A DNA stretch of 64,000 bases from Patescibacteria group bacterium (GTDB lineage Bacteria > Patescibacteriota > UBA1384 > CAJBMM01): positions 85,520 to 149,519 of the forward strand of contig JBAZWC010000002.1 of NCBI GenBank assembly GCA_041660565.1, read 5' to 3'. The position numbers and the translations under genes are program-made. The first letter of the stretch is position 1; every line of letters starts with the position of its first letter. Below are positions 2,563 to 61,058 of the stretch, piece by piece. Below the pieces are notes generated by a model. That model was not told where the DNA came from. It did no database searches and saw only the letters and a program-made list of their open reading frames with translations.

Positions 2563-2574
2563 GCAAGGAGCGGA

Positions 2575-3266: not shown

Positions 3267-3279
3267 CCACGCACAACAG

Positions 3280-3320: not shown

Positions 3321-3334
3321 AACTCGCCACGAGC

Positions 3335-3367: not shown

Positions 3368-3408
3368 AAAAATTCAACGTTAATTGTTAACTGTTAATAG
3401 TTAATTGT

Positions 3409-9642: not shown

Positions 9643-10182
9643 GTGAAGTTTTGCTTGATCTACTATACTAATTCTATGCCACCTAATCCGCAAGTTATCA
9701 CCACCACACGTGCTACAGCCGTACCGATGCTCTCATCTGAAACGGAGATTTTTCGCGTACATAAAAGTTACTTTTTCCTAATTGCCCCGATTATTTTTGT
9801 CTCCCTGGTTGGAATAGCACTGATTATCGCCATAAACGTGCTCTCAAATCAGATCCCAACAAACTTAATTAACTACTTACGTATTGGCATTATTGCGATG
9901 ATCGTCTTTATTGATGCTTTAATTTGGTTTGATTGGCTGACTACTATCTATACCTTAACCAATCGAAGAATACAGTACCGTTTTGGTGTTATTGGCGAAC
10001 AAACAAAAACTATTGCCCTAGATCAGATCACCGACAACAAGGTGGTTATCGGTATTTTTGGACGCATTTTTAACTATGGCGATGTGGTAATAGATGCCGC
10101 CCATATTAATAGCACTATTTCATTCAAAGGAATCGGCTCTGCTGAAAGCCGAAAAGATCAGATTGACAATGCAAAAGGGTAA
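9643..10182 (+). CDS. Membrane protein with bacterial PH (bPH_2) domain, divergent paralog of 8805..9314
   Basis: 179 aa. FRVHKSYFFLIAP motif, two TM helices, C-terminal PH-like region. Start may be internal (MPPNPQ). Confidence 0.6.
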   Translation: MKFCLIYYTNSMPPNPQVITTTRATAVPMLSSETEIFRVHKSYFFLIAPIIFVSLVGIALIIAINVLSNQIPTNLINYLRIGIIAMIVFIDALIWFDWLTTIYTLTNRRIQYRFGVIGEQTKTIALDQITDNKVVIGIFGRIFNYGDVVIDAAHINSTISFKGIGSAESRKDQIDNAKG

Positions 10183-10240
10183 ATTTTTAGGGCCGGCCGC
10201 GTAACAACGCAACCGACCCTACCTCCCCCTCGTCAAGTCA

Positions 10241-10339
10241 GACCCTCCTTAGGTCTTTGATATAGTCTCGAATCTCCGCCACTAGGACGATAACCAACGC
10301 GGGCAGAAACTCGAACCACACTCCGAGAATCTTCATCGT
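10241..10339 (-). CDS. Small (32-aa) single-TM membrane peptide, island B
   Basis: MKILGVWFEFLPALVIVLVAEIRDYIKDLRRV, with perfect RBS GAGGAGGG 7 nt upstream of ATG. Below the 60-aa cutoff of the ORF track. Immediately downstream of the 167-aa membrane protein, same strand. Confidence 0.45.
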
Positions 10340-10435
10340 GCTGCCCTCCTCAATCCTGAGAAAGACTACCGCCGAAGTGGGTGATGATGACCCACATCCC
10401 GATCACCCACTCCAGGGCTGCACGGAGCACCGATA

Positions 10436-10939
10436 TCATCTTGCCATCCTCCTTCTGACCTCTACCCTTCCCGGGTGACGAGGTCGCGGAGACATCCGAG
10501 CACGACCACCCTCGGTTGTGATCAGTCGGAGAGGGCGGTATTCCTGTCGTCGGCGGGCGCGCCTGACCTTGACGATCAGATACAGCCCCACCATGCCAAC
10601 CGCAACAGCGTAAAAGCGGTTGATGTTGAGCCAGTCGGTGATCTGTATTGTGCCCAGATCCTCGAAGGCTGTATTGTACAGCCAGATGGACGCCGGGCGA
10701 ATCGCCCATACCCACGCGGCCCAAAGCGAGCCGCAGCAGATGGCGATGATCCCACCCCAAACGGTGGAGTTAATCATCGCCCAGCGGTTGTCCGACAACC
10801 ACTGGCGGATCGAATCGCGGCAGATGTACGCCGACGCAATCGCCGAAGCGATTACCATCGCCGCGAGCCACATCACGGGGGAGTCTTGCCCCCACATCGC
10901 ACGATAAAACGCGTGCGACATGTTGTAATCGTCGTTCAT
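10436..10939 (-). CDS. Hypothetical integral membrane protein with Arg-rich C-terminal tail (GC-rich island B)
   Basis: 167 aa, 3-4 predicted TM helices, RBS GGAAGG upstream. GC-rich codon usage. No recognisable family. Confidence 0.5.
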   Translation of the reverse strand: MNDDYNMSHAFYRAMWGQDSPVMWLAAMVIASAIASAYICRDSIRQWLSDNRWAMINSTVWGGIIAICCGSLWAAWVWAIRPASIWLYNTAFEDLGTIQITDWLNINRFYAVAVGMVGLYLIVKVRRARRRQEYRPLRLITTEGGRARMSPRPRHPGRVEVRRRMAR

Positions 10940-11070
10940 GTCCGTTACCTTCCTCCCGCTTCATCGCGAGAAAAAATGAGACGAAACTGTGTTGTTCAAG
11001 AGCAATCTCAGCTACTTACAGCTCAGCATTATTACTTATATTATACACCCTACGTGTGTGTTTGTCAACC

Positions 11071-13826: not shown

Positions 13827-13995
13827 AAGACTCCTTGAAATAGGTTAGTTGATGAAAAACATATTTTTAGTACAAAATATTTACGTTCTAAGTGTAGCAC
13901 ATAGGATTAATATTGTCAATAGCAAAGTGTTGCGTCAGAATCGAAAAAGTGATATAACATAGTTAGCTACATCATCCCGATGGAGGAGAAACGCG

Positions 13996-14268
13996 ATGAC
14001 GGATCAGGTAATTCATCACGCTGTAACGCCCTCAGAAGAGGAGCCGATCACGCTGACCAAGCGCGAGACCGAGATCCTTACGCTGGTAATCGAGGGCCGG
14101 TCAAGCCAGGAAGTAGCCGACATGCTGTACGTCTCCAAGCGGACAATCGACTTCCACTTGGCGAACATCTACGAAAAGTTGCAGGTGAGCAACCGCGTGC
14201 AGGCCTTCCGGCGAGCAGCTCGCCTAGGCTTGATCCCGTTCGACCCGCACTTCGGAGAATCCGAGTGA
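13996..14268 (+). CDS. LuxR/GerE-type HTH solo transcriptional regulator (GC-rich island C)
   Basis: 90 aa. LTKRETEILTLVIEGRSSQEVADMLYVSKRTIDFHLANIYEKLQVSNRVQA is a canonical GerE/LuxR C-terminal HTH. RBS GGAGGAG upstream. Promoter-like TTGCGT-17-TATAAC at about 13935-13965. Confidence 0.8.
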   Translation: MTDQVIHHAVTPSEEEPITLTKRETEILTLVIEGRSSQEVADMLYVSKRTIDFHLANIYEKLQVSNRVQAFRRAARLGLIPFDPHFGESE

Positions 14269-14370
14269 CGACCCAGCCCAGTTTACGCGCCCGCGACAAA
14301 CCACCGTCATCGGGCGCCTTCTTTTTGCAGACACTTGACCCCGTCAGAGGTAATCGTCTCTAACGGGGTT

Positions 14371-14400
14371 GACATTACTCACCTAATCGCGTATTATAAT
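14371..14400 (+). promoter_or_regulatory. Near-consensus sigma70 promoter (TTGACA-17-TATTAT/TATAAT)
   Basis: ttgacattactcacctaatcgcgtattataat has a perfect -35 hexamer, 17-bp spacer and -10 TATTAT overlapping TATAAT. No ORF with a plausible RBS follows. Confidence 0.6.
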
Positions 14401-14404
14401 GGAT

Positions 14405-14690
14405 GTGCGAGGAATGGAGCACGCGCACAGTCGCACTGTTCGAGTTGCCACCCCGCTTAGCGGGGTAATCGGGACGTCAGCGGGACGCCCAGCGTCCTTA
14501 GCGTTCCACCATTTCGCCTACCTCGTCGGCCGGGGGGGAGAGGCAGGCGAAACGCCGGGTTGACGCGGGACTGTTTGGTACCCCCTTCCGGTCCCGCTCC
14601 CCGTCGCAATCATACCGCTCCTTTTCGGGAGCGAACGTCTCACCCGGGTGCCAACAGTGTTGTTGGTGCCCGGTTTTCTTTTATCTAAAA
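14405..14690 (+). ncRNA. Candidate structured non-coding RNA (~285 nt, GC-rich), class unknown
   Basis: Lies between the consensus promoter and an intrinsic terminator. Multiple strong local hairpins (CCCCGC-UUAG-GCGGGG, GGACGC-CCAG-GCGUCC, GCGGGAC...GUCCCGC, GCUCC-UUUUC-GGGAGC). No convincing ORF. Next gene is on the opposite strand. Confidence 0.4.
14648..14690 (+). terminator. Rho-independent terminator of the candidate ncRNA
   Basis: CCCGGGUGCCAACA-GUG-UUGUUGGUGCCCGG stem followed by UUUUCUUUUAU. Confidence 0.6.
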
Positions 14691-14710
14691 TTCCAATTTA
14701 TCCAATTTGC

Positions 14711-15598
14711 CTAATTAAGCCAATTTGAACTGTTTTTTATCACTCCGGCCGTCGTAACAGTACCACTTTTTATTCTGACCAAAATGTATTTCAACGCTAG
14801 CCAAAACCCCCAAAACTGCTCCCACCGCCGATGGACTAAAGCGTTAACTACGTGAAACGGCATCCAAAATAAATGCACCAGCAACATGGGCAAGTTGTCT
14901 ATCGCCCGCCAGGTAAAAAGATACGCACCCTTCCAGCCATGGGCTTTTTTTATTAATGGCGTTGCCACCATCGAAGTAGTTGATTCATGATGGTGAATAC
15001 AGCGGCTTTTTGGCACAAATATCGATTTCCAACCTTTTTTCCAAGCCCGAAAACACAAATCGGCATCTTCCCAATAAAACGGCCGAAAAATTGGTGAAAA
15101 TCCACCTAAATCTAAAAACTTTTGCCGATTAAAAGCGCCGGCGCCACCACTAACGTAGAAAGTGTTTATCGGATCGCTAAATTTACGGTCAGGATACATC
15201 TCAAACACCGGCCGATGGCGCAACAAGCCCCGTTTCCACTCTGCCACCGTTCCCCCATCGTCGTATTCATGATCACCAGCAACGACACGCTGATACGCGC
15301 CAACCGCAAAAACTTTGTCATCCTCTAATTCTTTATATAACGGACTGAAAAAATCACCCTCGGTTTGAATATCGGTATTCAGCAACACCACAATGTCTGT
15401 TTTGGTCATTTTCACCGCGCGGTTATAACCATCGCCAAAGCCGTAATTCTGATCAAATGGCACCCATTTGGCGATTTTATGATCTTTAACCACCTGCGCA
15501 CTGTTATCTTTTGAGCCGTTATCAACCACAATCACTTCAGTTGAAATGCTCGCCAGACTAGCCGATTTTATCACCGACGCCAAATTCCGGCGCAGCAA
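14711..15598 (-). CDS. Glycosyltransferase family 2
   Basis: 295 aa. VIVVDNGSKDNS (DxD-context) and GGAGAFNRQKF motifs of GT-A fold GT2 enzymes. Confidence 0.8.
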   Translation of the reverse strand: MLRRNLASVIKSASLASISTEVIVVDNGSKDNSAQVVKDHKIAKWVPFDQNYGFGDGYNRAVKMTKTDIVVLLNTDIQTEGDFFSPLYKELEDDKVFAVGAYQRVVAGDHEYDDGGTVAEWKRGLLRHRPVFEMYPDRKFSDPINTFYVSGGAGAFNRQKFLDLGGFSPIFRPFYWEDADLCFRAWKKGWKSIFVPKSRCIHHHESTTSMVATPLIKKAHGWKGAYLFTWRAIDNLPMLLVHLFWMPFHVVNALVHRRWEQFWGFWLALKYILVRIKSGTVTTAGVIKNSSNWLN

Positions 15599-16827: not shown

Positions 16828-16860
16828 TGTCATTCCGGATTTAATCCGGAATCTATATAA
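16828..16860 (+). repeat. R1 hairpin repeat copy e (TGTCATTCCGGATTTAATCCGGAATCTATATAA)
   Basis: Core identical to copy a (which starts GCCATTCC). 8 nt after ychF stop, at the left edge of GC-rich island D. Confidence 0.85.
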
Positions 16861-17026
16861 TTAAATTCTTTTTATAGCATGAACTCCGGGTCATGCCCTT
16901 AAGTGACAGCTGCTGACGTTTGACATATCAAATAATAAGCGTAAAGTAGTTTTTAATGCCTCAATCGCTCGAATGAGGAGCACTTTTCACATACATGTCG
17001 GCTCGGTAGGCCAAAAGGAGGCCAGC

Positions 17027-17254
17027 GTGGCGATACAGGAAGACGGAATCCCCAACGACCAAGACTGTATCCCCGCACCCGGGGAGAAAGCCGTGCGTCT
17101 GCTACTCGAGGACAATGCCAACCTACGCAGGGTGAACGAGGAGTTACGCGCGGCCAATGCAGACCTTCGCAGCAAGCTGATGGCAGCAACAGGACGGATT
17201 ACTGCCCTGACGCGCCGGACAGATGTTCAACCCGCCACCCCAACGCGCACGTGA
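17027..17254 (+). CDS. Small coiled-coil protein (island D, gene 1)
   Basis: Track ORF 16973..17254. A more likely start is GTG 17027 after RBS AAAGGAGG. Heptad-rich LEDNANLRRVNEELRAANADLRSKL. Upstream promoter-like TTGACA-16-TAAAGT at about 16920-16950. Confidence 0.45.
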   Translation: MAIQEDGIPNDQDCIPAPGEKAVRLLLEDNANLRRVNEELRAANADLRSKLMAATGRITALTRRTDVQPATPTRT

Positions 17255-17266
17255 AGGAGAGAACGC

Positions 17267-18004
17267 ATGTGCCCACCGCATTCCGTTGAGGAAGCGTCGA
17301 CTGACCCATACGACACAATCGACCTTCTTGAACAAGACATCGAGAGTCGCGACCGAACCATTGCTGATCTGCGCCGAGAGAACGCCCAGCTGTTGACCCG
17401 CGTCAACGAGCTTGGTCAGCAGAAAGCCACAGCTGAGACGCTAGCTGAGGATCTCCAGCGAGACATAGCGCTGTTGCGCCGTGAGATCCAGCGCTTGCAA
17501 TGTCAGGACACAACCACGCAGCCTGAAGATGCACCGCCAGCAACGCCATGGTTTGCGAACATCAGTTTCAGCACGAACGCATGGGAAGTGCTTGCCGTGC
17601 GTGCACCGGCGGTTGCCCGCGAGTTCAGCGAGAACTACGTCTCCACAGAGCATCTGTTGCTCGCGATACTCCGAGTTCCCGATTGTACTGCGGCGAAGTT
17701 TCTGGACTATCGCGGTGTCACCGAGCGCATCATTGCCGAGGTAAACCGGCAAGCGATGCGGGGAGATGATCGAACAACGGCTGAACCGCAACTAACCCCG
17801 CGCTGCAAGCGATGTGTCGAATTAGCGATCAACGAAGCTGCGGGCGACACTTTCGGCACCGGATACATGCTGCTCGGTTTGATCCAAGACGGTGAAGGTC
17901 TGGCGGCTCGTGTCTTGACCAAGATCTGCGGCGTGACACTCGAATCGGCTCGACGGGAGCTTCAAGCGCTGCGCCAACCCAATCCCACCCCAACGCCTGC
18001 GTAA
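17267..18004 (+). CDS. Coiled-coil protein with C-terminal double Clp_N (Clp amino-terminal R) domain (island D, gene 2)
   Basis: 245 aa. N-terminal coiled coil (DLRRENAQLLTRVNELGQQKATAETLAEDLQRDIALLRREIQRLQ), then two Clp_N-like repeats (FSTNAWEVLAVRAPAVAREFSENYVSTEHLLLAILR ... ELAINEAAGDTFGTGYMLLGLIQDGEGLAARVL). RBS GAAGGAGA. Confidence 0.6.
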   Translation: MCPPHSVEEASTDPYDTIDLLEQDIESRDRTIADLRRENAQLLTRVNELGQQKATAETLAEDLQRDIALLRREIQRLQCQDTTTQPEDAPPATPWFANISFSTNAWEVLAVRAPAVAREFSENYVSTEHLLLAILRVPDCTAAKFLDYRGVTERIIAEVNRQAMRGDDRTTAEPQLTPRCKRCVELAINEAAGDTFGTGYMLLGLIQDGEGLAARVLTKICGVTLESARRELQALRQPNPTPTPA

Positions 18005-18017
18005 AGGAAAGAGCGCC

Positions 18018-18326
18018 ATGCCGACAGACGATAGCCCCGAAGCGAGGATCGAGAGTCAGCGAACGTACATCCAGCAACTCGAGAGAGAGAAGGCTCAGCT
18101 GTCGCAAGAGCTCGCCGACGTCAGGCAGGAGATCCAGACCACCAGGAACTCGCTGCGGGAAGCACAGGAAACGCTGGCGGGGGTCGCGCCGGAAAAGCTC
18201 GAGCTTCTCGGACAGCTGCGAACCGAGCAGACGCGAAACCGCCAACTGGAGGACCGATTGGGTCTGCTCCGGTCGGTTAGCGACCAACTTTCCGCCCTAT
18301 CCGCGGAATACCCTCCGATCGAGTAG
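18018..18326 (+). CDS. Small coiled-coil protein (island D, gene 3)
   Basis: 102 aa, continuous heptads (IQQLEREKAQLSQELADVRQEIQTTRNSLREAQETL). RBS AAAGGAAAGAG. Confidence 0.5.
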   Translation: MPTDDSPEARIESQRTYIQQLEREKAQLSQELADVRQEIQTTRNSLREAQETLAGVAPEKLELLGQLRTEQTRNRQLEDRLGLLRSVSDQLSALSAEYPPIE

Positions 18327-18329
18327 CCC

Positions 18330-18378
18330 ACTTGCCCCCATCCGCTTGCGGACATGGGGGCTTGCTTTTTTGAAAAAT
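18330..18378 (+). terminator. Rho-independent terminator closing island D
   Basis: CCCCCATCCGCTTGCGGACATGGGGG hairpin followed by CTTGCTTTTTT. Confidence 0.6.
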
Positions 18379-18478
18379 ATCTGTTAAATTAATAGTAATA
18401 TAAACCAACTTTTTCCCGCGGCTAATTTGCCTCGGGTCGGGAATGAAAAAATATCCCGAACCACAGAAAGGACATTAC

Positions 18479-27826: not shown

Positions 27827-29953
27827 CTACTTCGCTTCTTGGCTAACTTTGGGTCGGCGCAAATACGCAACAACCAACAGAACCACCACAAACACGGCCA
27901 ATACAATCCACTTAGCTTGGCTTGTCAAAGCATGTTCGGTCATTAATGAGATAATCAACAACGCCACAATGTTCACCACTTTAATCATGGGGTTGATGGC
28001 CGGACCGGCGGTGTCTTTATATGGATCGCCTACAGTATCGCCGGTAACGGCGGCCTGATGAGCAAACGAACCTTTTCCACCAAAGTTACCAGATTCGATG
28101 TATTTTTTAGCGTTATCCCAAGCGCCACCGCCCGAAGTCATCGAAATTGCCACGAAGATACCAGTGACGATAGATCCAACCAGCAATCCACCCAAAGCCG
28201 ATGGCCCCAGCAAGAATCCAACCAAAACAGTGGCTACGATAGGCAATACAGCCGGAATAACCATTTCTTTAATTGCAGATTTTGTCACAATATCCACTGC
28301 CGCCCGATAATCCGGCTTCTCAGTTCCTTTCATAATGCCCTTAAAGACTCGGAACTGGCGTCGAACCTCTTCTACTACCTGTGCGCCCGCTTTTCCCACC
28401 GCTTCCATAGACAACGCGGCAAAATAGTAGGGCAACAGACCACCAATAAACAGACCAACCAAAACGTACGGGTCGGACAACGAGAAAGTCAATTCTTGGC
28501 CGGTCAAAGTCTTCAAATCGGCCACATAAGACGCAAACAACACAATGGCGGCCAAACCAGCTGAACCAATGGCATAACCCTTGGTAACGGCTTTGGTGGT
28601 GTTACCCACGGCATCTAATTCATCGGTAATGGTGCGGATTGATTCCGGCAGCTCGGCCATTTCGGCAATGCCACCGGCGTTATCAGTGATCGGACCATAG
28701 GCATCAATAGCGACGATGATTCCCGCCAGCGACAACATCGCAACCACTGCGATGGCAACACCAAAGATTCCGGCCAAGCTGTACGAGGCCAAAATGGCGG
28801 CGCAAATAACCAAAACTGGCATTGCGGTTGAGCGCATCGAAACTGCCAAACCGGTGATCACGTTAGTACCGTGGCCGGTTTGTGAGGAGGCGGCAATTGA
28901 TTTAACCGGCGCATATTTGGTGCTGGTAAAGTATTCGGTGATGACAACCAAAAGCGCGGTTACGGCCAAACCAATCAATGATGCAAAAAACAGATTGTTC
29001 ACGGTATAGTCGGCACCATAGCTGGTTAATCCGGACATAAATTTATTCGTCACAAACCAGAACGCCACCGCCGATAACACGCCAGCGACGATCAAACCGT
29101 TGTACAGCGCGGCCATAATGCCTTGCTTGCCAAAACGGCGCACGAACCAAGTACCAATAATAGTGGCGACGATGGATACGCCACCAAGAGCCAATGGGTA
29201 CAACAGCACGCTTTCGTTGCCCTTAAACAAAATGGCACCAAGCAACATTACCGCAATCATGGTAACACAGTAAGTTTCAAATAGATCGGCGGCCATTCCG
29301 GCGCAATCACCCACGTTATCGCCTACGTTATCGGCAATGACGGCCGGATTTCGCGGATCGTCTTCTGGAATTCCGGCTTCAACTTTACCCACCAAATCGG
29401 CACCAACGTCGGCGCCTTTGGTGTAAATACCGCCGCCCAATCGAGCAAAGATGCTAATTAATGATCCTCCAAAACCCAAACCAATTAAAGCTGAGGTGTC
29501 TTTGAAAATCGCGTAAAAAGCGGTGACGGCCAGCAAGCCCAAGCCCACTACCAACAATCCGGTTACGCTACCACCTTGAAAAGCCACTTTCAAAGCTGCG
29601 TCTAAGCCAGATTTTGCCGCTTCGGCAGTACGAACATTGGCGCGCACCGAGACGTTCATCCCAATGTAACCAGCCAACGCCGATAATGTTGCTCCCACCA
29701 AAAAGCCAACCGCAGTGTGCCAGTTAAGCGCGTAGAGCAGCACCACGAATAGGACAACGGCCACAAGTGCCACGGTTGAGTACTGGCGATTAAGAAAAGC
29801 CATTGCACCTTGTTGGATGGCCAACGCAATGTCTGCCATCTTTTTGGTTCCCACCGGTTTCTTTAGAATATTTAAGGCGGTCAATATGCCATATACAACC
29901 GCAAGGGATCCTCCGCCAAGTGCCAGGGTAAGCGCTAACTGGTAGGTGCTCAT
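27827..29953 (-). CDS. hppA: Membrane-bound proton/sodium-translocating pyrophosphatase
   Basis: 708 aa. [40 protein letters not shown], about 16 TM helices. Confidence 0.93.
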
Positions 29954-30079
29954 AGTTCATCTTCCTTTCAGATTTTGATAGGGTTTGTTTTCGTTTGTTT
30001 TCCTTATTTATATCAGTTTGAGACCTCAATAGCAAGATTTTAGGCCCTCCAACGTGCGGAGGGCCTATGGCTGGCGACT

Positions 30080-30754
30080 TCACCAGTCGATTGTAACGAT
30101 GCGAGCAAACTGGCTAGATGCGGTCATGGGATCGGCATACAGCTTGACATAGGTGACGTCCAGGCCATCTTCGACCAGATACATCACCGCCCACAGCTTC
30201 CTCGATCGATCAGGAACCCCCGGGAAAACGTGTAATCCGGGCACATACAACGGAAAGTTCATATCGCTCCGACATTTCAGCCAGATAAACTGCATCACCC
30301 GCGCCAACGGGATCGGCACCCCACCTGCCTCATCGAACATCTGCTGGTAGGTTGCCCGACGCCCCAAGTTGTTGACGGTCACCGAACAGGGCAGCGGCTC
30401 TTGCATCAACACGTCGTCCCCAAAGACATCGTGGAACGATTTGTCGATGGACCATTTGGTCAGGCCATAACCAGATACCAGATCGCCGGTGGCCAAATGC
30501 AGTGGCACAAGGTTGTTAACCAGCGGCAAGTTCACCGAAATGGTCGGCTTCAGCAACCCCGTCTGTGATGCGGGCTCGCGCGGTACTGGCGACATCAACA
30601 ACCTTCGCAACTCCGGACCAAGCAAGCTAGTGTGACCTTGCCAAAACCGTACGGCGTCAGCGGGAACTTCTTCAACGGGCATTGGAGACTGCTGCACTAG
30701 CATTGCATGCAGCTCTTTCAGCATTCTTGCTTGGGCTCTCTCATGTTCTGGCAT
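30080..30754 (-). CDS. Hypothetical protein, LARVWQY-motif paralog family member E1 (GC-rich island E)
   Basis: 224 aa. Shares PLARVMQFIWLKCRS…FPGVPDR with E2 (SLARVWQYLHVACRS…RVPNR) and F1 (ITLARVWQYVALY). Identical 96-bp leader upstream. Confidence 0.55.
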   Translation of the reverse strand: MPEHERAQARMLKELHAMLVQQSPMPVEEVPADAVRFWQGHTSLLGPELRRLLMSPVPREPASQTGLLKPTISVNLPLVNNLVPLHLATGDLVSGYGLTKWSIDKSFHDVFGDDVLMQEPLPCSVTVNNLGRRATYQQMFDEAGGVPIPLARVMQFIWLKCRSDMNFPLYVPGLHVFPGVPDRSRKLWAVMYLVEDGLDVTYVKLYADPMTASSQFARIVTIDW

Positions 30755-30847
30755 GAGCTATCCCCTTTACGTTTTACGCCCGCCGGCGTAACGGCTCGCC
30801 TGTTCGAGCCGTTTGAATCCACACAAAAAATACCACAAAAAGTGGTA
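30752..30847 (-). promoter_or_regulatory. Duplicated 5' leader/regulatory module, copy 1 (identical to 31619-31714)
   Basis: Sense orientation: TACCACTTTTTGTGGTA (perfect IR), U-run, AACGGCTCG-AACAGG-CGAGCCGTT hairpin, ACGCC-GGCG-GGCGT hairpin, AAAGGGGA RBS, ATG. 96/96 identical between copies. Confidence 0.7.
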
Positions 30848-30910
30848 AATGTCTAGAATGAAATCGGCCCCGGGGGTTAGCCGGGGCCGGAGTGTTTGAC
30901 GTGCCTGATG

Positions 30911-31621
30911 TCAACTGGCGTAGACCAGCACATTGGCTTGGACCGGATCATCCAGCGGGTGAGCATCCAACATAATCCACGACTTACCCGTGCTGTGATC
31001 CGGAGTAGCGCAAACGACAACATGAGCGCCATTGCGGTTCGGGACTCGGATGAAAGCGTGGCTGGTGTCACCCATACTGATCAAACTCTCGCATGACCGA
31101 CACGCCACATGGAGGTACTGCCACACCCGTGCCAACGACAACGACCGCACCGGGTAGGCTATCGTCCCAGCAACGTCTTGGTAGGTATCTCTTTCTTTCG
31201 GATGTACGCGATTACAGACTGTCACGTTCCCAGCTAGCCACAGGATTATCGGCCCGATCCCTCTGAACGCCTCAGTGAACGAATCATCAAGGATCACGCC
31301 CCAATTGTTGATGGCAACGCCGTCAGATTTGTCAAAGCGCCGATTGTGCCAGTACTCATCCGGCGGCAACTGGATGGTTATCAGTTTCTCCAGTACCGTC
31401 TCGTCAAACGCCGGTGGAAAGACGCATCGTAGGCCAGCTTGCATCGCCTCCCCTAGCAGGCTCTTGTGCGCTAGCAGATATTCGACATGTTGCATCGAGA
31501 TGCCAGCACCGGGAGTCGGCGCCTTCGCCAAGACAGCAGTGTACCAATCATGAACGTAGCCCGCAGTCAGCAAATCGACTCCCCGATCTCTTGCCTGGGC
31601 TGTCTCACGGTCCGTAGACAT
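30911..31621 (-). CDS. Hypothetical protein, LARVWQY-motif paralog family member E2
   Basis: 236 aa, see E1. Starts with the same leader and ATG context (rc of CATGAGCTATCC). Confidence 0.55.
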   Translation of the reverse strand: MSTDRETAQARDRGVDLLTAGYVHDWYTAVLAKAPTPGAGISMQHVEYLLAHKSLLGEAMQAGLRCVFPPAFDETVLEKLITIQLPPDEYWHNRRFDKSDGVAINNWGVILDDSFTEAFRGIGPIILWLAGNVTVCNRVHPKERDTYQDVAGTIAYPVRSLSLARVWQYLHVACRSCESLISMGDTSHAFIRVPNRNGAHVVVCATPDHSTGKSWIMLDAHPLDDPVQANVLVYAS

Positions 31622-31714
31622 GAGCTATCCCCTTTACGTTTTACGCCCGCCGGCGTAACGGCTCGCCTGTTCGAGCCGTTTGAATCCACACAAAAAATAC
31701 CACAAAAAGTGGTA
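31619..31714 (-). promoter_or_regulatory. Duplicated 5' leader/regulatory module, copy 2
   Basis: Exact repeat of 30752-30847. Upstream flanks differ. Confidence 0.7.
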
Positions 31715-31742
31715 GGTGTCCATATTTGACGTAAGGGTAGTT

Positions 31743-31812
31743 TGGGAAATTAGGGGTTTTAGGGGCATTAGGAACTCCCAATTTCCCTAATCGCCCTAAT
31801 GCCCCTAACCGG
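31743..31812. repeat. TTAGGG-like inverted repeat with G-tracts, copy 2
   Basis: AAATTAGGGGTTTTAGGGGCATTAGGAACTCCCAATTTCCCTAATCGCCCTAATGCCCCTAA. Arms are reverse complements. Related to 3876-3958. Confidence 0.7.
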
Positions 31813-31814
31813 CT

Positions 31815-33076
31815 TTATTTTCCCAACAGCTCTTCTATCCTTAATAGCTCATTATATTTGGCGATGCGTTCGCCGCGGGCCGGCGCGCCAAATTTAACAT
31901 ACGGCACTTGCAACCCCACCGCCAAATGCGCCAAAATTGGGCTTTCGGTATCGCCAGAGCGGTGCGATAACACTGGCGCATAACCCAACTTTACCGCTTC
32001 GATTATTGCTTCCACCGAACCGGTTAACGTGCCAATTTGGGTTGGTTTAATCATAATTGCGTTGGCAATGTGGTCAGTGGCGCCTTTACGTAACCGCGTG
32101 GCGTTGGTGGAGAAAATGTCATCGCCAATTACCATAATTTTATCGTTCAATTGGCGCGACAACTCAATCCACCCATCCCAGTCTTGATCTGCCAAACCGT
32201 CCTCAATACCCATCAACGGAAAGTTGGCGTGCAACTTGGTAAATTTGTCTATTAGATATTGTGCCGGTACATCACCATCGTGATGAGAAAGATGATACAA
32301 TCGCGCATCGGTGTACAGATTATTCGCTGCCACATCCAACACAATGCCATGTCTTCGGCTTTGTAGCCGGCCAACTGCGTGCCCTCAACAATCAGCGACA
32401 TACCCTGATCGGTGGTAGCGTTTGGCACCGAATACCCACCTTCATCGCCCACCTGCTTGCCAAACCCACTTTTCTGCAAAATGGTGCCTACAGCATGATA
32501 AATATCCGCCCCAACTTGCAACGCTTGCCTAAAACTAGAGGCATTTTTGATCACAATGTTAAATTCTTGCGCGTCGGTAGAGAAAGCCGCCAATTTGCCA
32601 CCGTTAAAGATGTTAATCATTGGCTTAGGGATTTCTAATTTGGCGCTCGGGTCTAAATCTTCCCTAAGCATTCGAAAGCTAACATACGCCGGCTGTTTTT
32701 GACGATCTGCTTCGGCCATTGCATACGCATACGACAGGCAGAGGATGCCGTTGGCGCCGTAATGCTCCAAACTGGGAGTGCCGTCTAGGCCAACGATGTA
32801 CTGATCAAAAACTTTTTGATTATTAAATTCCATCCCGATAATTTGCGGCGCTAGATAATGATTAACGTTTTCTACTACGCGGGTAACGCCGCGGCCTCGC
32901 AAACGGCCTAAATCGCCATCGCGTAGTTCATGCATTTCGTATGAGCCAATAGAGGTGCCACTACCAACGTTAGCGGAAGTAACGCCACCGCCGTCTAGGG
33001 CGATGTCAACTTCTACCGTCGGGTCTCCTCGCGAGTCGATAATTTCTCTGGCTTTTATGGTGGTTATTTTAGACAA
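31815..33076 (-). pseudogene. eno: Enolase (phosphopyruvate hydratase) interrupted by an apparent +/-1 frameshift near 32335-32345
   Basis: N-terminal part (TTG start 33076 after RBS GAGGGG; …IIDSRGDPTVEVDI…GDEGGY…AGYKAEDMAL) and C-terminal part (…LDVAANN…SHRSGDTESP…GAPARGERIAKYNELLRIEE) lie in different frames (track ORFs 32252..33139 and 31815..32342). Could be a sequencing error or an authentic disruption. Confidence 0.85.
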
Positions 33077-33143
33077 TAAAACCCCTCTGCTAATATGATA
33101 ACAGAAAACAGATGACATGGGACAGAGGACAGACGCCACGACC

Positions 33144-33220
33144 TGTCATTTCGACCCTACGAGAATGTCAATTCGAGTATGTTGGAGAAATCTTAAAGAA
33201 GAATCCCTTCCAGTATATAA
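33144..33220 (+). repeat. R1-related repeat copy f (TGTCATTTCGACC ... GGAGAAATCTTAAAGAAG variant)
   Basis: Shares TGTCATTTCGAC head and GGAGAAATCT tail with copies h (38281) and i (48567). Confidence 0.65.
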
Positions 33221-33221
33221 A

Positions 33222-33252
33222 AAGAACGCCTCCCAACTTGCAGGGAGGCGTC
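33222..33252 (-). terminator. Terminator hairpin of F1 (ACGCCTCCC-AACTTGCA-GGGAGGCGT)
   Basis: On the minus strand, GGGAGGCGT is followed by TCTTTTTATATA. Paralogous hairpin at 34052-34082 after F2. Confidence 0.55.
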
Positions 33253-33261
33253 GAGTACACG

Positions 33262-33906
33262 TCAAGCAACGACGACGCGGGCGCCAGCGTTCAGCTCATC
33301 CGAACCATGGGCGATGTTGAAATGTACACGATTTTTTCCTGCCCAGCGTGTGAAATCCATTCTTACACCGTGTACATGTCCCAAATGGTCGAGCACGTAT
33401 GGAATGTAGTATCGCCACGCCCAAGACTGGTCATCTTGGATGTACAACGCGACATACTGCCATACACGAGCCAAGGTTATTCCGATCTGACGGTGTAATT
33501 CTGGCGACACTCCGGTGCAGTCTGTCATCGAGGTGGTCTTGAGTATGTGAAGCTTAGCCGACATGCGCTCGTCAAGCCGATTTTCACTGTCGAGCATATC
33601 AGACGTGAAGATGGAACGGAACTCATCGCTCGTCTTCTCTATTCTCACCTCATCGCCAATAAACGCGCCCTGGGCAAACTTCTCCCTGAGGTCAAACCCC
33701 GTCAACGCTGGTAGTACAACGGAATACCAGAGCTCCAGAAGTTGTCGTCCCGCTGGTCTCGGCAGTTTGGACTTGACGTAAGTGACAAACTGGTCTGGGT
33801 GTTCGATCAACGCTTTTTGGAAGTCATCGTCCCCAACCCCACGCTCCTCCAGTAAGCGAGCCAGCTCGCCCACCTTTCTTGCACTAATAGGCTGCACGGT
33901 TGCCAC
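33262..33906 (-). CDS. Hypothetical protein, LARVWQY-motif paralog family member F1 (GC-rich island F)
   Basis: 214 aa, GTG start with AGGTG RBS. ITLARVWQYVALYIQDD motif. Upstream 79-bp leader duplicated at 34719-34799. Confidence 0.55.
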   Translation of the reverse strand: MATVQPISARKVGELARLLEERGVGDDDFQKALIEHPDQFVTYVKSKLPRPAGRQLLELWYSVVLPALTGFDLREKFAQGAFIGDEVRIEKTSDEFRSIFTSDMLDSENRLDERMSAKLHILKTTSMTDCTGVSPELHRQIGITLARVWQYVALYIQDDQSWAWRYYIPYVLDHLGHVHGVRMDFTRWAGKNRVHFNIAHGSDELNAGARVVVA

Positions 33907-33917
33907 CGCAACACCTA

Positions 33918-33996
33918 TTTGCCTTTCTGCGCCCTTCGACGCGGCCTTGGCCCGACAGTTCGGACCGTTGGTAAAGAACTAGCCAAAACGATACCA
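33918..33996 (-). promoter_or_regulatory. Second duplicated leader family, copy 1 (matches 34719-34799)
   Basis: TTTGCCTTTCTGCGCC..GACGCGGCCTTGGCCCGACAGTTCGGACCGTTGGTAAAGAACTAGCCAAAACGATACCA, about 75/79 identical to copy 2. Contains GGUCCG/CGGGCC hairpin (sense). Confidence 0.65.
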
Positions 33997-34017
33997 CTTT
34001 AATCCGTATTTGTCCAC

Positions 34018-34050
34018 TGTCATTCCGGATTTAATTCGGAATCTATATAA
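34018..34050 (+). repeat. R1 hairpin repeat copy g (TGTCATTCCGGATTTAATTCGGAATCTATATAA)
   Basis: One mismatch in the stem relative to copies a and e. Confidence 0.8.
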
Positions 34051-34090
34051 GAAGAACGCCTCCTAAGCATCAGGAGGCGTCGAATACCGG

Positions 34091-34711
34091 TCAACCGATG
34101 ACCAGACTGAATGATCTGAACGCGTCAAAGTTCCATCCGCGTCTGTTGTAACCGAGACGACAGATGACATCCGGATCGAACTTGACCCACACTCTGACGT
34201 GTGTGCCATTTACCGGCAGTACTCCGTCTGCACCTCGTCCCTGTGGTTTGATCAGCTGAATCAGGTGGGCGGGGTGGATCGGGATTGGTTGGTCGCCACT
34301 ACCGACTCCCACGATCATCATTCCCGATGACTCCGAGGTGCGAAATGGGCGGTAAACCACGTCTACTGATGGAATAATTATGGGGGTTTTGTCGAAATCG
34401 AGTGCCGTCGCCCAAAAGTCTGGAGAAAAAGCATCGATCTTGACACCGTCACCTAGGTCCACGGTCCCGTTGTAGAGATCAGACACCACGACATTGCGTT
34501 GTTCTGGGAGGTGGATTCGAAAGCTGCCATCATGTCCGATCGACAACTGATGCGTGTACTGGTTCTTCAACGATTCCGGCGGCTCTCTGCGCAGGAATAG
34601 GCACAATTGCCTTAACCACTCAGAGCCATTTCTTCCGCATAGCTTATCCCACAAATCCTTCATCGGTCCGTGTGCATCACGGAGCGACACACCGAGCATG
34701 TCATCAGACAT
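34091..34711 (-). CDS. Hypothetical protein, distant paralog F2
   Basis: 206 aa. Weak similarity to E1 (REPPESL vs REPASQTGL region). Same leader family as F1. Own terminator hairpin at 34052-34082. Confidence 0.5.
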   Translation of the reverse strand: MSDDMLGVSLRDAHGPMKDLWDKLCGRNGSEWLRQLCLFLRREPPESLKNQYTHQLSIGHDGSFRIHLPEQRNVVVSDLYNGTVDLGDGVKIDAFSPDFWATALDFDKTPIIIPSVDVVYRPFRTSESSGMMIVGVGSGDQPIPIHPAHLIQLIKPQGRGADGVLPVNGTHVRVWVKFDPDVICRLGYNRRGWNFDAFRSFSLVIG

Positions 34712-34718
34712 GGTCAGT

Positions 34719-34799
34719 TTTTGCCTTTCTGCGCCTTAAAGACGCGGCCTTGGCCCGACAGTTCGGACCGTTGGTAAAGAACTAGCCAAAACGATACCA
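34719..34799 (-). promoter_or_regulatory. Second duplicated leader family, copy 2
   Basis: See 33918-33996. Confidence 0.65.
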
Positions 34800-34872
34800 T
34801 CAAAACTAGCGCTTGTCGAGACGTAGAAAATCAAAATTTCAAATTCATCGTTATTCTTGCTACAATATCCCT

Positions 34873-41595: not shown

Positions 41596-42111
41596 ATGAC
41601 AACCGATAAAAAAATAATCAAATATGCTGATCTGGCAAAGGTTAGGCGAAATGTATCGAAAAATCGCCAGACGATCGCATTCACCTCTGGCTGCTACGAT
41701 ATGCTTCATATGGGACACATTATTCATTTTAACTACTGCAAAAGTAAAGGTGATATTTTGGTTGTTAGTGTGGGTAACGATCAAAATGTTTCCGAGCTAA
41801 AAGGACCAAGCAGACCGATTGTGACCGAAAGTTTTCGGGCCAGACACATTGCTGCCTTAGCGTGCGTTGATTACGTGGTGATAAGCGAGGAAATGGGCAT
41901 CATGGATCACAACCGCATGCTAGAGCTACTTAAACCGGATATTTACGTTGTCCCCGTATCAGACAAGTTGCTAAATGCCAAAAAAGAGCTGGTCAGTCGA
42001 AACGGCGGCAAAGTACACACCTGCCGACGGATCCCGCCGGAACATCTGAAAGGCGGTATTTCCACCACCAAATTGGAAGAAAAGATCCGTAAAAATACTA
42101 GTATTTTGTAA
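41596..42111 (+). CDS. Cytidylyltransferase, glycerol-3-phosphate cytidylyltransferase (TagD)-like
   Basis: FTSGCYDMLHMGHIIHF (HxGH) and RARHIAALACVDYVV motifs. ATG 41596 lies 10 nt after TATAAT. Confidence 0.7.
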   Translation: MTTDKKIIKYADLAKVRRNVSKNRQTIAFTSGCYDMLHMGHIIHFNYCKSKGDILVVSVGNDQNVSELKGPSRPIVTESFRARHIAALACVDYVVISEEMGIMDHNRMLELLKPDIYVVPVSDKLLNAKKELVSRNGGKVHTCRRIPPEHLKGGISTTKLEEKIRKNTSIL

Positions 42112-42132
42112 AATGGACAAATAAAGACGGCG

Positions 42133-42157
42133 GCTGGATCAACCAGCCGCCGGTAAG
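42133..42157 (+). terminator. Hairpin CGGCGGCTGG-ATCAA-CCAGCCGCCG after tagD-like gene
   Basis: Perfect 10-bp GC stem. No clear T-run. Abuts the stop of the convergent GC-rich gene 42168..43214. Confidence 0.45.
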
Positions 42158-42167
42158 GCACGAGCTA

Positions 42168-43214
42168 CTACAGGAGGGAATCGATGAACGTCGCCGCGCG
42201 CAAGGCGCTGTTGTCATCGAACGCGGGCCCGCGCCCAACCCGAGGAGGGGCATTCAGCATATCGCGCAGATCGGCGAGAGTACGTGCTTCTGCAACGTAC
42301 CCAGCCTCGACCCAGGGAAACCTCGGGGCGATAGTGGCGTCTTTCTCGTACATCTTGTCCGTGTGCGGCAAAGCGTAGTTGACTGCCGAAACGCCCATCG
42401 CGGCGGCCCGACCAAGCACCGTGGAATACGGCGCGATAACCACGTCGGATGCCGCAATGACTTCATCGGTTGTGAAGTCGCTAGTGTCGACCGCCATGTC
42501 TCCCAGGCTCGCGAATGCAGCCTGATACGCCGCAAACTCCTCTGGCGCTCGCTCAGCCAAACGTGGATGCGGACGAAGCGCCGCGCGGACAGGGAACGTG
42601 CATGTCATGATCACGCGCACCACGTTGCGCATCATCTCGCCAGTCTGTTCAATACTACTGAACGCCGACACCAGGCACCACTCGGGCGAAATACCCAACT
42701 CCTGTCGGACCCAGCAACGTACGGCATCCATTTCGAACCCAGCCAGTCGGTCGAACGCCGGGTAACCGGTGACGACAGCGCGGTCGGGATTGAAATCGGG
42801 CCAGGCGCGCAGAATGATCTGCTTCCCGACCTCATCACCGGCGGTGATGTAGTCGGGCCGCGCGTTCGGCCACTCGTCGTTGGTGAGGGCGCCACTGACC
42901 GGATAGTCGGAAAGCGCTACCACCGGGCCGGTGTATCCGTTCTGGCGCAAGTGCTGCACCAGAGCGAACCCGATGTTGCCCGATGAATCGAGAGATGTTA
43001 CGACCAGGTCAGGCATCCACCCGAGCTTGTCGCAGCATTCCGGCCCCAGGCAGAGATAGCTGGTCGCCCCTTCGATCAGTAGTTTGGTCGCCGGTCCATC
43101 GGCAACCACTCGAACCGTGTTGCGCTGGTCTTGTGCCAACTGCCGATACACCGGGATAATGCCCTCGGCCCCTCCGGTATCGGCGCAGATCATCAGGATA
43201 TTGCGTTTGCTCAA
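42168..43214 (-). CDS. CDP-glycerol glycerophosphotransferase (TagB/TagF)-like GT-B protein, GC-rich island G
   Basis: 348 aa. C-terminal …LRPHPRL…DEVIAASDVVIAPYSTVLGRAAAMGVSAVNY resembles the TagF-family catalytic region. GC content is higher than both flanks. Confidence 0.5.
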   Translation of the reverse strand: MSKRNILMICADTGGAEGIIPVYRQLAQDQRNTVRVVADGPATKLLIEGATSYLCLGPECCDKLGWMPDLVVTSLDSSGNIGFALVQHLRQNGYTGPVVALSDYPVSGALTNDEWPNARPDYITAGDEVGKQIILRAWPDFNPDRAVVTGYPAFDRLAGFEMDAVRCWVRQELGISPEWCLVSAFSSIEQTGEMMRNVVRVIMTCTFPVRAALRPHPRLAERAPEEFAAYQAAFASLGDMAVDTSDFTTDEVIAASDVVIAPYSTVLGRAAAMGVSAVNYALPHTDKMYEKDATIAPRFPWVEAGYVAEARTLADLRDMLNAPPRVGRGPAFDDNSALRAATFIDSLL

Positions 43215-43378
43215 TCTCGTTCTCCTCCCTTCAGGACATGCAACGATCAGAGTACCAGTATTTTATCTCATTTATCTATTTTTGTCAATCTCGATACGCT
43301 ATCAAATTATTGCGTAATAAACCAGACTCTATCATTTTTGCCCAGAAGTGCTATAACAGTTAATAGACAAGGAGATTC

Positions 43379-58142: not shown

Positions 58143-59553
58143 AGTATTGTGGATTCTAAATAAATACGTTGACGGGCAAAACCACAGCCAGTTTTATCCG
58201 TATTTTTTGGCGGATTTGGAAAAAGAGTGCTTATCAAAAGAAATTCAACTTGAGTTTACCTATTTTAGCGATGCGCAAAAAAAGTGCGATCGGACGCAAC
58301 ATCATCATTTTTTCTTTGAACATCATCGCAAAATAACTGATTTCCACCGAGAAGCGGCTCGCATTGAAAACGAATATAATTTTACCCTAAATCACGCCTA
58401 TTATTCGGACATTATTCAGGTCACCAAAACTCAAGATACTCGTCGCATAACCGTACCGGAAAAAGAGCTTAATAATCATCAATTATTAGTAGAGAAATTT
58501 GTCTACCTAGAGAACTTAGTCAAAAAGAACGGGTATGACGTTATTTTTTGCGATCAATCTCCTGAGGCCGAAGCGGAATTTGGACGGGTGATAGCGCTGA
58601 AAAATAATTTGGTTTTCATTCGTCATGGCGAAGGTTTTTTGGCCAACAGCTTATTCAGCCAACAATTCGAGTTCGGCAAAGAGCGATTGTCAGAAGCGGT
58701 TTTGAATACAGACGTTACACTAGAACAAGCCAAAGAGTTTGTGCGAGATTTTATTAAAAACAAAAGGCCGCCGTATCAATATCCGGAAACCCACAAAGCC
58801 AGCGCCTTAAAGTTTTATTCCGCTCGCATCGCTCATTTTTACCGCTACCCCAATTTTATTAAAATGGCTTTGTCTCAGCCGTGGCTGTGGTTTGAGGAAA
58901 AATGGCTAAAAAGACGACTGGAAAAGCAGTTTGACCCCACCGCATCGTATCTGTTTTTAGGATTGCAGCTGCCAACCGAATCTACCATAGTGCTGCGTTC
59001 GCAACCATACGCCAATCAATCACTAATTATTGAGGCCATCAGCCGAGTCTTACCCGATAACACCCTGTTATATGTGCGTGAACATCCAAAATGGCGTAAA
59101 CATTTTCCGGCGCGATTCCTTGGTCAAATTGCCTCACTACCAAACGTGCGTTTAATTTCGCCACAAATCCCGGCATGGGAGGTTATTCATCATGCCAAAG
59201 CGGTTTTAACCTACAACTCTACCATCGGCATTGAAGCGCTAATGCACGGCAAGCCGGTGCTCTCTTTTGCGCCAAATGTCTACATCAACCAACACCCGGC
59301 CGTTACTTTGTGCACAAATTTATATGATTTGGACCATAGCTTGGCTAAGTTGGTTAATACTAAAGTTGAGATAGAGGACACTTACAAATACATCTACAAA
59401 ATGATGCGTATCAGCAGCTGGGTGCCATTGTGGGCCAGCGGATTTTTATCTGAAGATGATGCCCAAAAAAAGGCCGGCGTGTTTAGCCAGCATTTACTAT
59501 TAGCGATTAAAGATTGCCAAAATTGGCAAAAAAATAACGGGCACTTGCGCTAG
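58135..59553 (+). CDS. GT-B transferase paralog (KpsS/KpsC-like or TagB/F-like)
   Basis: 472 aa. …YLFLGLQLPTES…VREHPKW…LTYNSTIGIEALMHGKPVLSFAP. Same architecture as 55364..56815. Confidence 0.5.
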   Translation: MIKVLWILNKYVDGQNHSQFYPYFLADLEKECLSKEIQLEFTYFSDAQKKCDRTQHHHFFFEHHRKITDFHREAARIENEYNFTLNHAYYSDIIQVTKTQDTRRITVPEKELNNHQLLVEKFVYLENLVKKNGYDVIFCDQSPEAEAEFGRVIALKNNLVFIRHGEGFLANSLFSQQFEFGKERLSEAVLNTDVTLEQAKEFVRDFIKNKRPPYQYPETHKASALKFYSARIAHFYRYPNFIKMALSQPWLWFEEKWLKRRLEKQFDPTASYLFLGLQLPTESTIVLRSQPYANQSLIIEAISRVLPDNTLLYVREHPKWRKHFPARFLGQIASLPNVRLISPQIPAWEVIHHAKAVLTYNSTIGIEALMHGKPVLSFAPNVYINQHPAVTLCTNLYDLDHSLAKLVNTKVEIEDTYKYIYKMMRISSWVPLWASGFLSEDDAQKKAGVFSQHLLLAIKDCQNWQKNNGHLR

Positions 59554-59585
59554 CAAGCACCCGCTTTGGAGCAACCATCAGCTGG

Positions 59586-60188: not shown

Positions 60189-60198
60189 TGTCCCCCTC

Positions 60199-60942: not shown

Positions 60943-61025
60943 ATCTTACTTTATTTTAGCCCCCTTGTCAACCAATTCGGAAGATTGGGGATGGAAAATA
61001 GATGATAGATTTTGGTAATTTTCCT

Positions 61026-61058
61026 TTGTCATTCCGGGCTTGACCCGGAATCTATATA
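61026..61058 (+). repeat. R1 hairpin repeat copy j (TGTCATTCCGGGCTTGACCCGGAATCTATATAA)
   Basis: Near-identical to copy b. Right edge of GC-rich island H. Confidence 0.8.

Follow-up and report, generated by a model that had tools for sequence, protein, structure and literature searches.

Genes and Repeated Leader Modules at the Enolase Locus

We analysed a 64,000 nt stretch of the genome of a Patescibacteria group bacterium (assembly GCA_041660565.1, contig JBAZWC010000002.1, positions 85,520 to 149,519), in the following called the window, with a focus on four minus-strand genes that lie as two pairs on either side of the enolase gene and on the repeated DNA segments in front of them. The list of open reading frames (ORFs) placed the genes E1 at 30080–30754, E2 at 30911–31621, F1 at 33262–33906, and F2 at 34091–34711. 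They encode proteins of 224 aa (E1), 236 aa (E2), 214 aa (F1, with a GTG start), and 206 aa (F2), which are listed as hypothetical proteins WC773_03160, 03165, 03180, and 03185 on a 374,447-bp contig in the annotation of this metagenome-assembled genome (MAG). The E1 protein has the accession MFA6082383.1, and the annotated start of WC773_03165 lies within our E2 frame. An H+-pyrophosphatase (H+-PPase) gene follows downstream, and a polysaccharide flippase gene is located upstream in divergent orientation. The GC content of the four genes was 53%–56% and their third-position GC content (GC3) was 0.59–0.66, compared to 45.8% GC for the window and GC3 values of 0.41–0.53 for most of its genes. 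This agrees with an earlier note on this DNA, which had described GC-rich DNA on both sides of enolase.

A repeat finder detected a direct repeat of 102 nt with 98% identity in front of the two E genes (minus strand, 30752–30853 for E1 and 31619–31720 for E2). Within this repeat, the segments 30752–30847 and 31619–31714 were identical at 96 of 96 positions, counting the ATG, which confirmed the 96-bp leader of 100% identity that had been described for E1 and E2. As seen in the alignment of the upstream regions, the identity started just past the -35 hexamer and stopped exactly at the ATG. F1 and F2 have a different module of their own, as had also been recognized. A 59 nt block (33938–33996 and 34741–34799) and a 16 nt block (33918–33933 and 34720–34735) were both 100% identical between the two genes and are divided by a difference in the loop of the second hairpin (4 versus 5 nt); the claimed length of this leader was about 79 bp. 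The F1 copy (33918–33996, minus strand) begins at the -10 region, stops about 12 nt short of the GTG, and comprises two hairpins. The F2 copy (34720–34799, minus strand) differs from it in the hairpin-2 loop.

A joint pattern for both leader types had exactly 4 sites in the window, those of E1, E2, F1, and F2, and no match was obtained in 100 shuffled sequences.

Promoter, 5'UTR, and Terminator Signals

A consensus scan assigned a promoter-like site to each of the four genes, with a -35 hexamer T(A/G/C)GACA, a spacer of 17 nt, and an extended -10 region that reads TGgTATTTT in the E pair and TGgTATCGT in the F pair. The predicted promoters, all on the minus strand, are located at 30827–30855 for E1 (TAGACA; 9 of 12 consensus matches, TG present), 31694–31722 for E2 (TGGACA), 33988–34016 for F1 (TGGACA), and 34791–34819 for F2 (TCGACA). 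The scan found 10 promoter-like sites in the region compared to an expectation of 4.6, and the exact motif TnGACA-N14-TGGTAT occurred only at the sites of the four genes. Judged by these matches, the repeated "leader" is the core promoter from the spacer on together with the whole 5' untranslated region (5'UTR). The view of the repeat as a simple transcribed leader had to be given up, since the repeat starts inside the promoter. For transcription start sites (TSSs) assumed to lie about 7 nt beyond the -10 region, the 5'UTRs would measure about 65–75 nt.

The spacers of both E promoters harbor the perfect palindrome TACCAC-TTTTT-GTGGTA (minus strand, 30831–30847 in E1, where T6 follows, and 31698–31714 in E2). 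It takes up spacer positions 3–17 plus two bases at the beginning of the -10 region and overlaps the TG of the extended -10. The corresponding hairpin has a predicted stability of -7.8 kcal/mol (z = -4.07), none of 200 shuffled sequences folded as well, and it is followed by U6; it was also flagged as terminator-like by the scan. The palindrome thus looks like a terminator for transcripts reading through from upstream, or could be an operator. Due to its position between -35 and -10 it belongs to promoter DNA and not to the 5'UTR, and it would not be transcribed from its own promoter. The earlier note had proposed an operator in the leader; the perfect palindrome, present in both E copies, is located in the promoter spacer and may serve as operator or as terminator. 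The F promoters retain only a GTGGTA or ATGGTA half of the palindrome, and this half is the -10 region itself.

Downstream of the palindrome and the U-run, the E leader continues with two hairpins, the Shine-Dalgarno (SD) sequence AAAGGGGA, and the ATG, in the order given in the earlier note. The E 5'UTR is predicted to fold into two adjacent hairpins of 8 (8–9) and 6 bp with a minimum free energy of -25.8 kcal/mol (z = -2.06). For E1 these are hairpin 1 at 30791–30812 with the arms ACGGCUCG/CGAGCCGU and hairpin 2 at 30775–30790 with UACGCC/GGCGUA, followed, 6 nt ahead of the ATG, by the SD at 30761–30768; all of these elements are on the minus strand. Most of the SD remains unpaired in this fold. 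The z-scores were -0.08 for the F1 leader and -1.72 for the F2 leader, and all four leaders match AACGGNNCGAACNGNCGNGCC. The E 5'UTR (window positions 30752–30826) also contains two short upstream frames, GTG..TAA with 16 codons and TTG..TAA with 19 codons, both ending just before the SD. They are probably meaningless, since neither has an SD of its own.

We considered whether the 5'UTR represents a new cis-regulatory RNA such as a riboswitch, attenuator, thermosensor, or protein-binding leader. The two-hairpin architecture and the AACGGNNCGAACNGNCGNGCC match in 4 of 4 leaders, the z-score of the E fold, and a few compensatory pairs in the alignment of the four leaders are in line with this idea. 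However, the Rfam 15 covariance models gave no match to the leaders at E ≤ 1, and known riboswitch and cis-regulatory RNA families were dismissed on this basis. No U-run follows the UTR hairpins, no alternative pairing that would sequester the SD was evident in E, where the SD is exposed, and the F1 leader did not fold better than expected. The similarity between E and F leaders was not significant (p about 0.03–0.1), and we dropped the assumption that they are homologs. A scan of IMG/VR with leader DNA yielded no copy of the leader, and the joint pattern gave 6 matches in the JGI metagenomes, all of them by chance and inside high-GC coding DNA. With only three distinct leader sequences, a covariation analysis is without power. 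A new regulatory RNA thus appears improbable to us. An attenuator, which the earlier note had listed as one option, or an expression platform was not evident, with no U-run after the UTR hairpins, no Rfam match, and z-scores of only -2.1, -0.1, and -1.7.

Each of the four genes is followed by a hairpin of its own with a predicted stability of -19 to -21 kcal/mol, as had been stated before. These hairpins, on the minus strand throughout, are found at 30041–30067 for E1 (terminator-like, -20.7 kcal/mol, z = -3.4), at 30865–30889 for E2 (intrinsic-terminator-like, 9 GC pairs, -20.9 kcal/mol), at 33225–33252 for F1, and at 34055–34081 for F2. The putative intrinsic terminators of F1 and F2 are 80%–91% alike over 23–30 nt, with identical stems and different loops, and the TTATATA that follows is also alike. 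Instead of a stem-loop in the spacer, the F promoters have a separate terminator upstream. Immediately beyond the E1 terminator there is a separate promoter-like site for the H+-PPase gene.

Coding Sequence Divergence and Leader Identity

E1 and E2 showed 26% identity over 228 aa in BLASTP (E = 3.5e-11) and 29% over 215 codon-aligned positions, and by this similarity they are true paralogs. The nucleotide identity of the coding sequences (CDSs) was 0.45, 0.52, and 0.36 at the first, second, and third codon positions, and 0.35 at the four-fold sites of conserved residues, while 0.28 is expected from composition. Synonymous sites are, therefore, essentially saturated. The 93 nt directly before the ATG do not differ at any position, including loops and linkers. 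The statement that the leaders remained unchanged while the coding sequences diverged strongly thus holds, in the E pair with 29% amino acid identity next to 93 of 93 identical nucleotides; the leaders of the two pairs are exact or near-exact repeats.

A simple tandem duplication cannot yield a saturated coding sequence beside an identical leader. Positive selection on the protein cannot explain the contrast either, because the silent sites diverged as well. The saturated silent sites together with the identical 93 nt argue that the E leader was homogenised recently, and the economical explanation appears to be that gene conversion, or a replacement of the module, made the regulatory segments alike a short time ago. 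Concerted evolution, one of the interpretations offered earlier, is also our best reading of the identical leaders, given a third-position identity of 0.36 compared to 0.28 for random sequences. Diversifying selection, as implied by the description of the family, is not shown: since synonymous sites are saturated too, the genes either diverged long ago or have separate origins.

The identity could also be due to selection only. In this case a shared operator TACCAC-N5-GTGGTA for a dimeric repressor and a functional 5'UTR would be maintained in a small regulon by purifying selection, without any recombination. The perfect 6 + 6 palindrome over the extended -10 in both E promoters fits such an operator, and the F leaders, in which stems are kept and loops vary, behave as expected for selection on structure. 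On the other hand, the 93 of 93 identical positions of the E leader take in loops, linkers, and spacer next to coding sequences with saturated synonymous sites, and selection rarely fixes every base. Furthermore, the F promoters hold only one half of the palindrome, which is the -10 region itself, and a Pfam scan of 30 window ORFs besides the four genes revealed no regulator gene adjoining the units. Purifying selection on every base is the weaker alternative, and we regard selection without recombination as unlikely, though worth keeping in mind.

For the F pair the picture suggested by the sequence is mixed. F1 and F2 have the 5' module and the terminator stems in common, and their proteins lack similarity. 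There is an exact block of 59 nt, yet in hairpin 2 and in the terminators only the loops vary and the stems are retained, which indicates that structure is under selection.

Relationship and Distribution of the Encoded Proteins

The four genes had been described as one LARVWQY family. Our data support this view for E1 and E2, which make up the family; the block is present in E1, E2, and F1 only, F1 is connected to the other two by nothing else, and we dropped the idea of full-length similarity across E1, E2, F1, and F2. The 7 residues LARVWQY are identical in F1 and E2 and are encoded by different synonymous codons, which implies conservation at the protein level. An hhalign comparison of F1 to E1 + E2 covered only 20 residues with a probability of 32%. 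The E1 + E2 profile scored F1 above 2999 of 3000 shuffled sequences, and nothing was left of this signal without the LARVWQY block. F2, which had been regarded as a more distant relative, showed no significant similarity: the hhalign probability was 4%, BLASTP versus F1 gave an E value of 1.8, and 16 of 3000 and 1092 of 3000 shuffled sequences reached the scores.

All four proteins are mildly acidic (pI 6.1 for E1) and contain no hydrophobic segment (maximal Kyte–Doolittle score over 19 residues ≤1.37). They are thus predicted to be soluble, without signal peptide or transmembrane segment. No recognizable domain had been seen before, and in agreement with this, searches of Pfam, PHROGs, NCBIfam, PADLOC, and PDB sequences gave best E values of 0.03–0.4, far below curated cut-offs. 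In a word-indexed search of 5.8 billion clusters E2 and F2 retrieved only themselves, and F1 retrieved itself and one match to its N-terminus, here designated P0003. HMMER searches with the E1 + E2 profile against 1.84 billion representatives retrieved E1, E2, and three repeat proteins; two of the latter were inspected and turned out to be spurious translations of tandem repeats. No match to the proteins was found by tblastn against phages and plasmids or by scans of IMG/VR with protein patterns. AlphaFold2 models had a mean pLDDT of 30.6 for E2 (with E1) and 42.8 for F1 (with P0003), which is too low to use. By these searches, E1, E2, F1, and F2 are lineage-restricted orphan proteins, seen in one genome.

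P0003 is a protein of 151 aa from a Saccharibacteria MAG. Residues 4–47 of F1 (44 aa) are 59% identical to its N-terminus (E = 2e-16); beyond this part P0003 is unrelated to F1. The P0003 gene has a promoter-like sequence TTGACA-17-TGTATTTT, a UTR hairpin, and the SD region AGGTGTTGCG of F1, and the similarity of the leaders had a p of about 0.01. A scan of the GTDB genomes, a collection that does not include the genome of the window, with the N-terminal module of F1 returned only the P0003 locus. No significant occurrence of the module was found in E1, E2, or F2. The AlphaFold2 model of the F1 N-terminus has a helix-loop-helix at residues 9–35 with a pLDDT of about 60. An assignment to SAP/HeH was rejected for the N-terminus of F1 and P0003, as neither SAP, Rho_N, nor a related Pfam family matched at E ≤ 10. 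Downstream of P0003 (CAZXNT010000001.1, 10460–10790) we observed an AT-rich stretch in which a GTGT(A/T/G)AAAC-like motif is iterated at least 5 times; next comes a gene for a free-standing LAGLIDADG endonuclease, encoded on the opposite strand.

Proposed Explanation for the Paired Modules

At a probability of roughly 0.5, we propose that E1, E2, F1, and F2 are four autonomous monocistronic orphan-gene units, and that their promoter/5'UTR modules are kept alike pairwise by recent gene conversion or modular recombination that is restricted to the regulatory DNA. Each unit would consist of a sigma-70-type promoter, a 5'UTR with two GC-rich hairpins and an exposed SD, the ORF, and its own intrinsic terminator. 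The E module, with spacer palindrome and T-run, may act as a composite of weak terminator and promoter which insulates each unit and provides a second stop for read-through transcripts. The same promoter and 5'UTR in both genes of a pair would provide the same signals for transcription and translation and thus lead to co-expression. The direct repeats (96–102 nt in E, about 80 nt in F) could serve as substrates for RecA-type recombination, resulting in homogenisation, and would also permit deletion, duplication, or exchange of the ORF between them. A recA gene, judged from the translation, is present in the window at 3961–5028. The recurrence of the 44 N-terminal residues and the SD region of F1 before an otherwise unrelated Saccharibacteria sequence also argues for modularity. 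The arrangement of the units, the identity of the repeats, the saturated synonymous sites of E1 and E2, the orphan status, and the housekeeping surroundings are shown by the data; promoter and terminator activity, gene conversion, transfer, and shuffling are what we infer from the sequence. The units were probably acquired horizontally.

Several observations weigh against this explanation. Only two copies of each module exist in the 64 kb, and no further copies were found elsewhere in the window, in IMG/VR, or in the JGI metagenomes, so that mobility and shuffling are permitted but not observed. Both modules are known from one genome. The E and F leaders are not significantly similar to each other, and the spacers of the F1 and F2 promoters contain no stem-loop. 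Promoters, TSSs, and terminators are assigned by consensus matches only. Finally, purifying selection on an operator and a structured 5'UTR would formally be able to cause the identity.

As the source is a MAG and the repeats have a length of only 59–102 nt, strain variants of one locus might have been joined in tandem via the shared leader by the assembler. An independent Logan contig from run SRR18595301 bears on this question. It is 100% identical to window positions 29310–30781 and stops exactly 30 nt into the shared leader including the ATG; for a Logan graph with k = 31, as we assume, this is k-1. The repeat thus causes a branch in a second assembly too. The contig shows the exact E1-PPase junction and the presence of the repeat in reads, while the tandem order is not proven by the contig alone. 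The 3' flanks of E1 and E2 and their unique 5' junctions (-35 and upstream) differ, which means that they are not alleles of one slot. In addition, a unique spacer of about 50 nt, which carries the dispersed repeat described below, lies between F2 and F1, and proteins with 26%–29% identity are not strain variants. An assembly artefact is, therefore, extremely unlikely in our opinion.

Surroundings of the Four Genes

The 30 window ORFs scanned are housekeeping genes or lack an annotation; those with a name encode GroEL, VanW, H+-PPase, flippase, glycosyltransferases, UDG, ribosomal protein S6, and sugar-nucleotide enzymes. None of them matched a recombinase, transposase, reverse transcriptase, or integrase. 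A diversity-generating retroelement was dismissed, as no reverse transcriptase or recombinase was among the scanned ORFs and the repeats are located at the 5' end and not in a C-terminal variable region.

The enolase gene (31815–33139) is broken into two overlapping ORFs, 32252–33139 and 31815–32342, with a frameshift near 32340. The site resembles a deletion of 1 nt (...GAC ATG GCA TT|GTG TTG GAT GTG..., with DMAL-VLDVAA expected). Either the gene for this core glycolytic enzyme is a genuine pseudogene here, or the MAG consensus contains an error. Directly after the enolase stop we found a long imperfect hairpin (31733–31834, arms 31733–31772 and 31795–31834) rich in TTAGGG/CCCTAA-like units, which is probably the enolase terminator. 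The only Rfam matches, two sub-threshold hits of miRNA models, were both on this hairpin and are spurious.

Other GC-rich islands (55%–58% GC) are located among housekeeping genes at 2118–3394, 10129–11036, 13925–14782, 16915–18474, 41950–43304, and 59471–60974. Pfam did not match most of their ORFs; those that were matched encode a Clp_N-domain protein (17267–18004), a coiled-coil protein (18018–18326), DUF218 (60199–60942), and YdjM (59586–60188). No paralogy was detected among the island ORFs or between them and the E and F genes. With mostly Pfam-less ORFs in these islands, it looks as if the E and F units belong to a more general layer of orphan DNA that this genome has acquired.

We also observed a dispersed palindromic intergenic repeat of about 33 nt, TTATATAGATTCCG[GA][AG]T[TC][AG]A[AG][TC]CCGGAATGRCA, with 5 copies in the pattern scan (1948–1976, 3335–3363, 16828–16856, 34018–34046, and 61027–61055, all on the minus strand) and no match in 100 shuffled sequences. 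Covariation is seen in its inner stem (GGAT..ATCC versus GGG..CCC). The GC-rich island at 1976–3335 is flanked by two copies in direct orientation, single copies border the islands at 16.9–18.5 kb and 59.5–61.0 kb, and one copy is located upstream of the F1 promoter, after the terminator of F2. The repeat resembles a REP-like element or a site of insertion or attachment. Two IMG/VR matches to the pattern were in coding DNA and were discarded as chance.

This repeat is also relevant to the idea that the units are cassettes of a site-specific recombination system, with the 5' segments as recombination sites of the type of integron attC or of the 5' box of Mycoplasma vsp/vsa genes. The cassette-like layout, clearest in F1 and F2 with the same flanks around unrelated ORFs, and the position of the dispersed repeat between F2 and F1 and at the borders of other GC-rich islands would be compatible with it. 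However, no integrase, recombinase, or transposase was among the scanned ORFs. All four genes have one orientation and each has its own promoter, so that nothing is silent. The proteins show no lipoprotein signals, the coding sequences are not rich in repeats, and the leaders have no attC-type architecture. We regard site-specific recombination as very improbable.

Comparison with Known Systems

In the Mycoplasma vsp/vlp and Borrelia erp families, near-identical upstream regulatory DNA precedes divergent tandem coding sequences, and the E and F units share this arrangement. The products of these families are surface lipoproteins, and the mechanisms at work are phase variation or recombinases, whereas the E and F proteins lack signal peptides and no recombinase was among the scanned ORFs. 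A phase-variable surface-protein family of the Mycoplasma vsp/vsa type was rejected because of the missing hydrophobic N-terminus, the single orientation, and the recombinase that was not found. Integron cassettes have an adjacent IntI, carry attC at their 3' end, and are usually promoterless. They were excluded, since no integrase was among the scanned ORFs, the genes have their own promoters, and the repeats are located 5' of the ORFs and not as attC 3' of them. Phage morons are single accessory ORFs with own promoter and terminator and deviant composition, inserted between conserved genes. The E and F units resemble them in all these features but lack a prophage context and any match in phage collections.

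Tandem paralogs with conserved flanking or intergenic segments and variable gene interiors were described before (PMC2568036). There, the conserved unit begins in the 3' part of an ORF, spans the intergenic region, and ends in the 5' part of the following ORF. In our locus, the identity breaks off exactly at the start codon in the E pair and is limited to the UTR and the terminator stems in the F pair.

The closest described analogue of the E and F units, as far as can be judged from the arrangement, are the PeSL (promoter-early stem-loop) cassettes found in T4-like phages (Arbiol et al. 2010, PMC2839356; Comeau et al. 2014, PMC4122927). A PeSL is a repeated module that has a strong sigma-70 promoter with a stem-loop mostly between -35 and -10 or overlapping -10 (PMC2839356), carries SD and start codon at its 3' end upstream of ORFans, and mediates modular shuffling (PMC2839356; PMC4122927). 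The stem-loop can stop transcription that arrives from upstream, and recombination between copies gives rise to indels, replacements, or mini-circles. All four of our genes have a sigma-70-type promoter, predicted by consensus match, in the repeated module, which finishes with SD and start codon immediately in front of an orphan gene. E1 and E2 also have a promoter stem-loop (-7.8 kcal/mol, U6) that may terminate upstream transcription, and F1 and F2 have direct repeats around unrelated ORFs that would permit modular shuffling. The setting is different: the E and F units are part of a Patescibacteria chromosome among housekeeping genes and showed no phage similarity, whereas PeSLs occur in hyperplastic regions of phages. 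We found 2 + 2 copies in 64 kb compared to about 50 per genome for PeSLs. Moreover, the 5'UTR of the E and F modules is long and structured, a promoter stem-loop is missing from the F modules, and recombination products were not observed. Since copy number, setting, and recombination evidence fall short of the PeSL definition, we consider the units PeSL-like in their working and not members of the PeSL group.

A farther-reaching possibility is that the modules are mobile regulatory cassettes of Patescibacteria chromosomes, a counterpart of PeSLs, which would take up orphan genes, express them, and swap them through homologous recombination. We consider this doubtful; if true, it would explain the turnover of GC-rich orphan islands in these tiny-genome symbionts, possibly together with the 33 nt repeat. 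Our data reveal no new biochemical system and no new kind of system but, in our reading, a homogenisation of regulatory modules. If our explanation is correct, the locus would be a clean and small case of regulatory and coding DNA evolving as separate modules in a reduced-genome bacterium from the candidate phyla radiation (CPR). It would also provide a handle on the poorly known native promoters, UTRs, and terminators of Patescibacteria and on how orphan accessory genes get installed among core genes.

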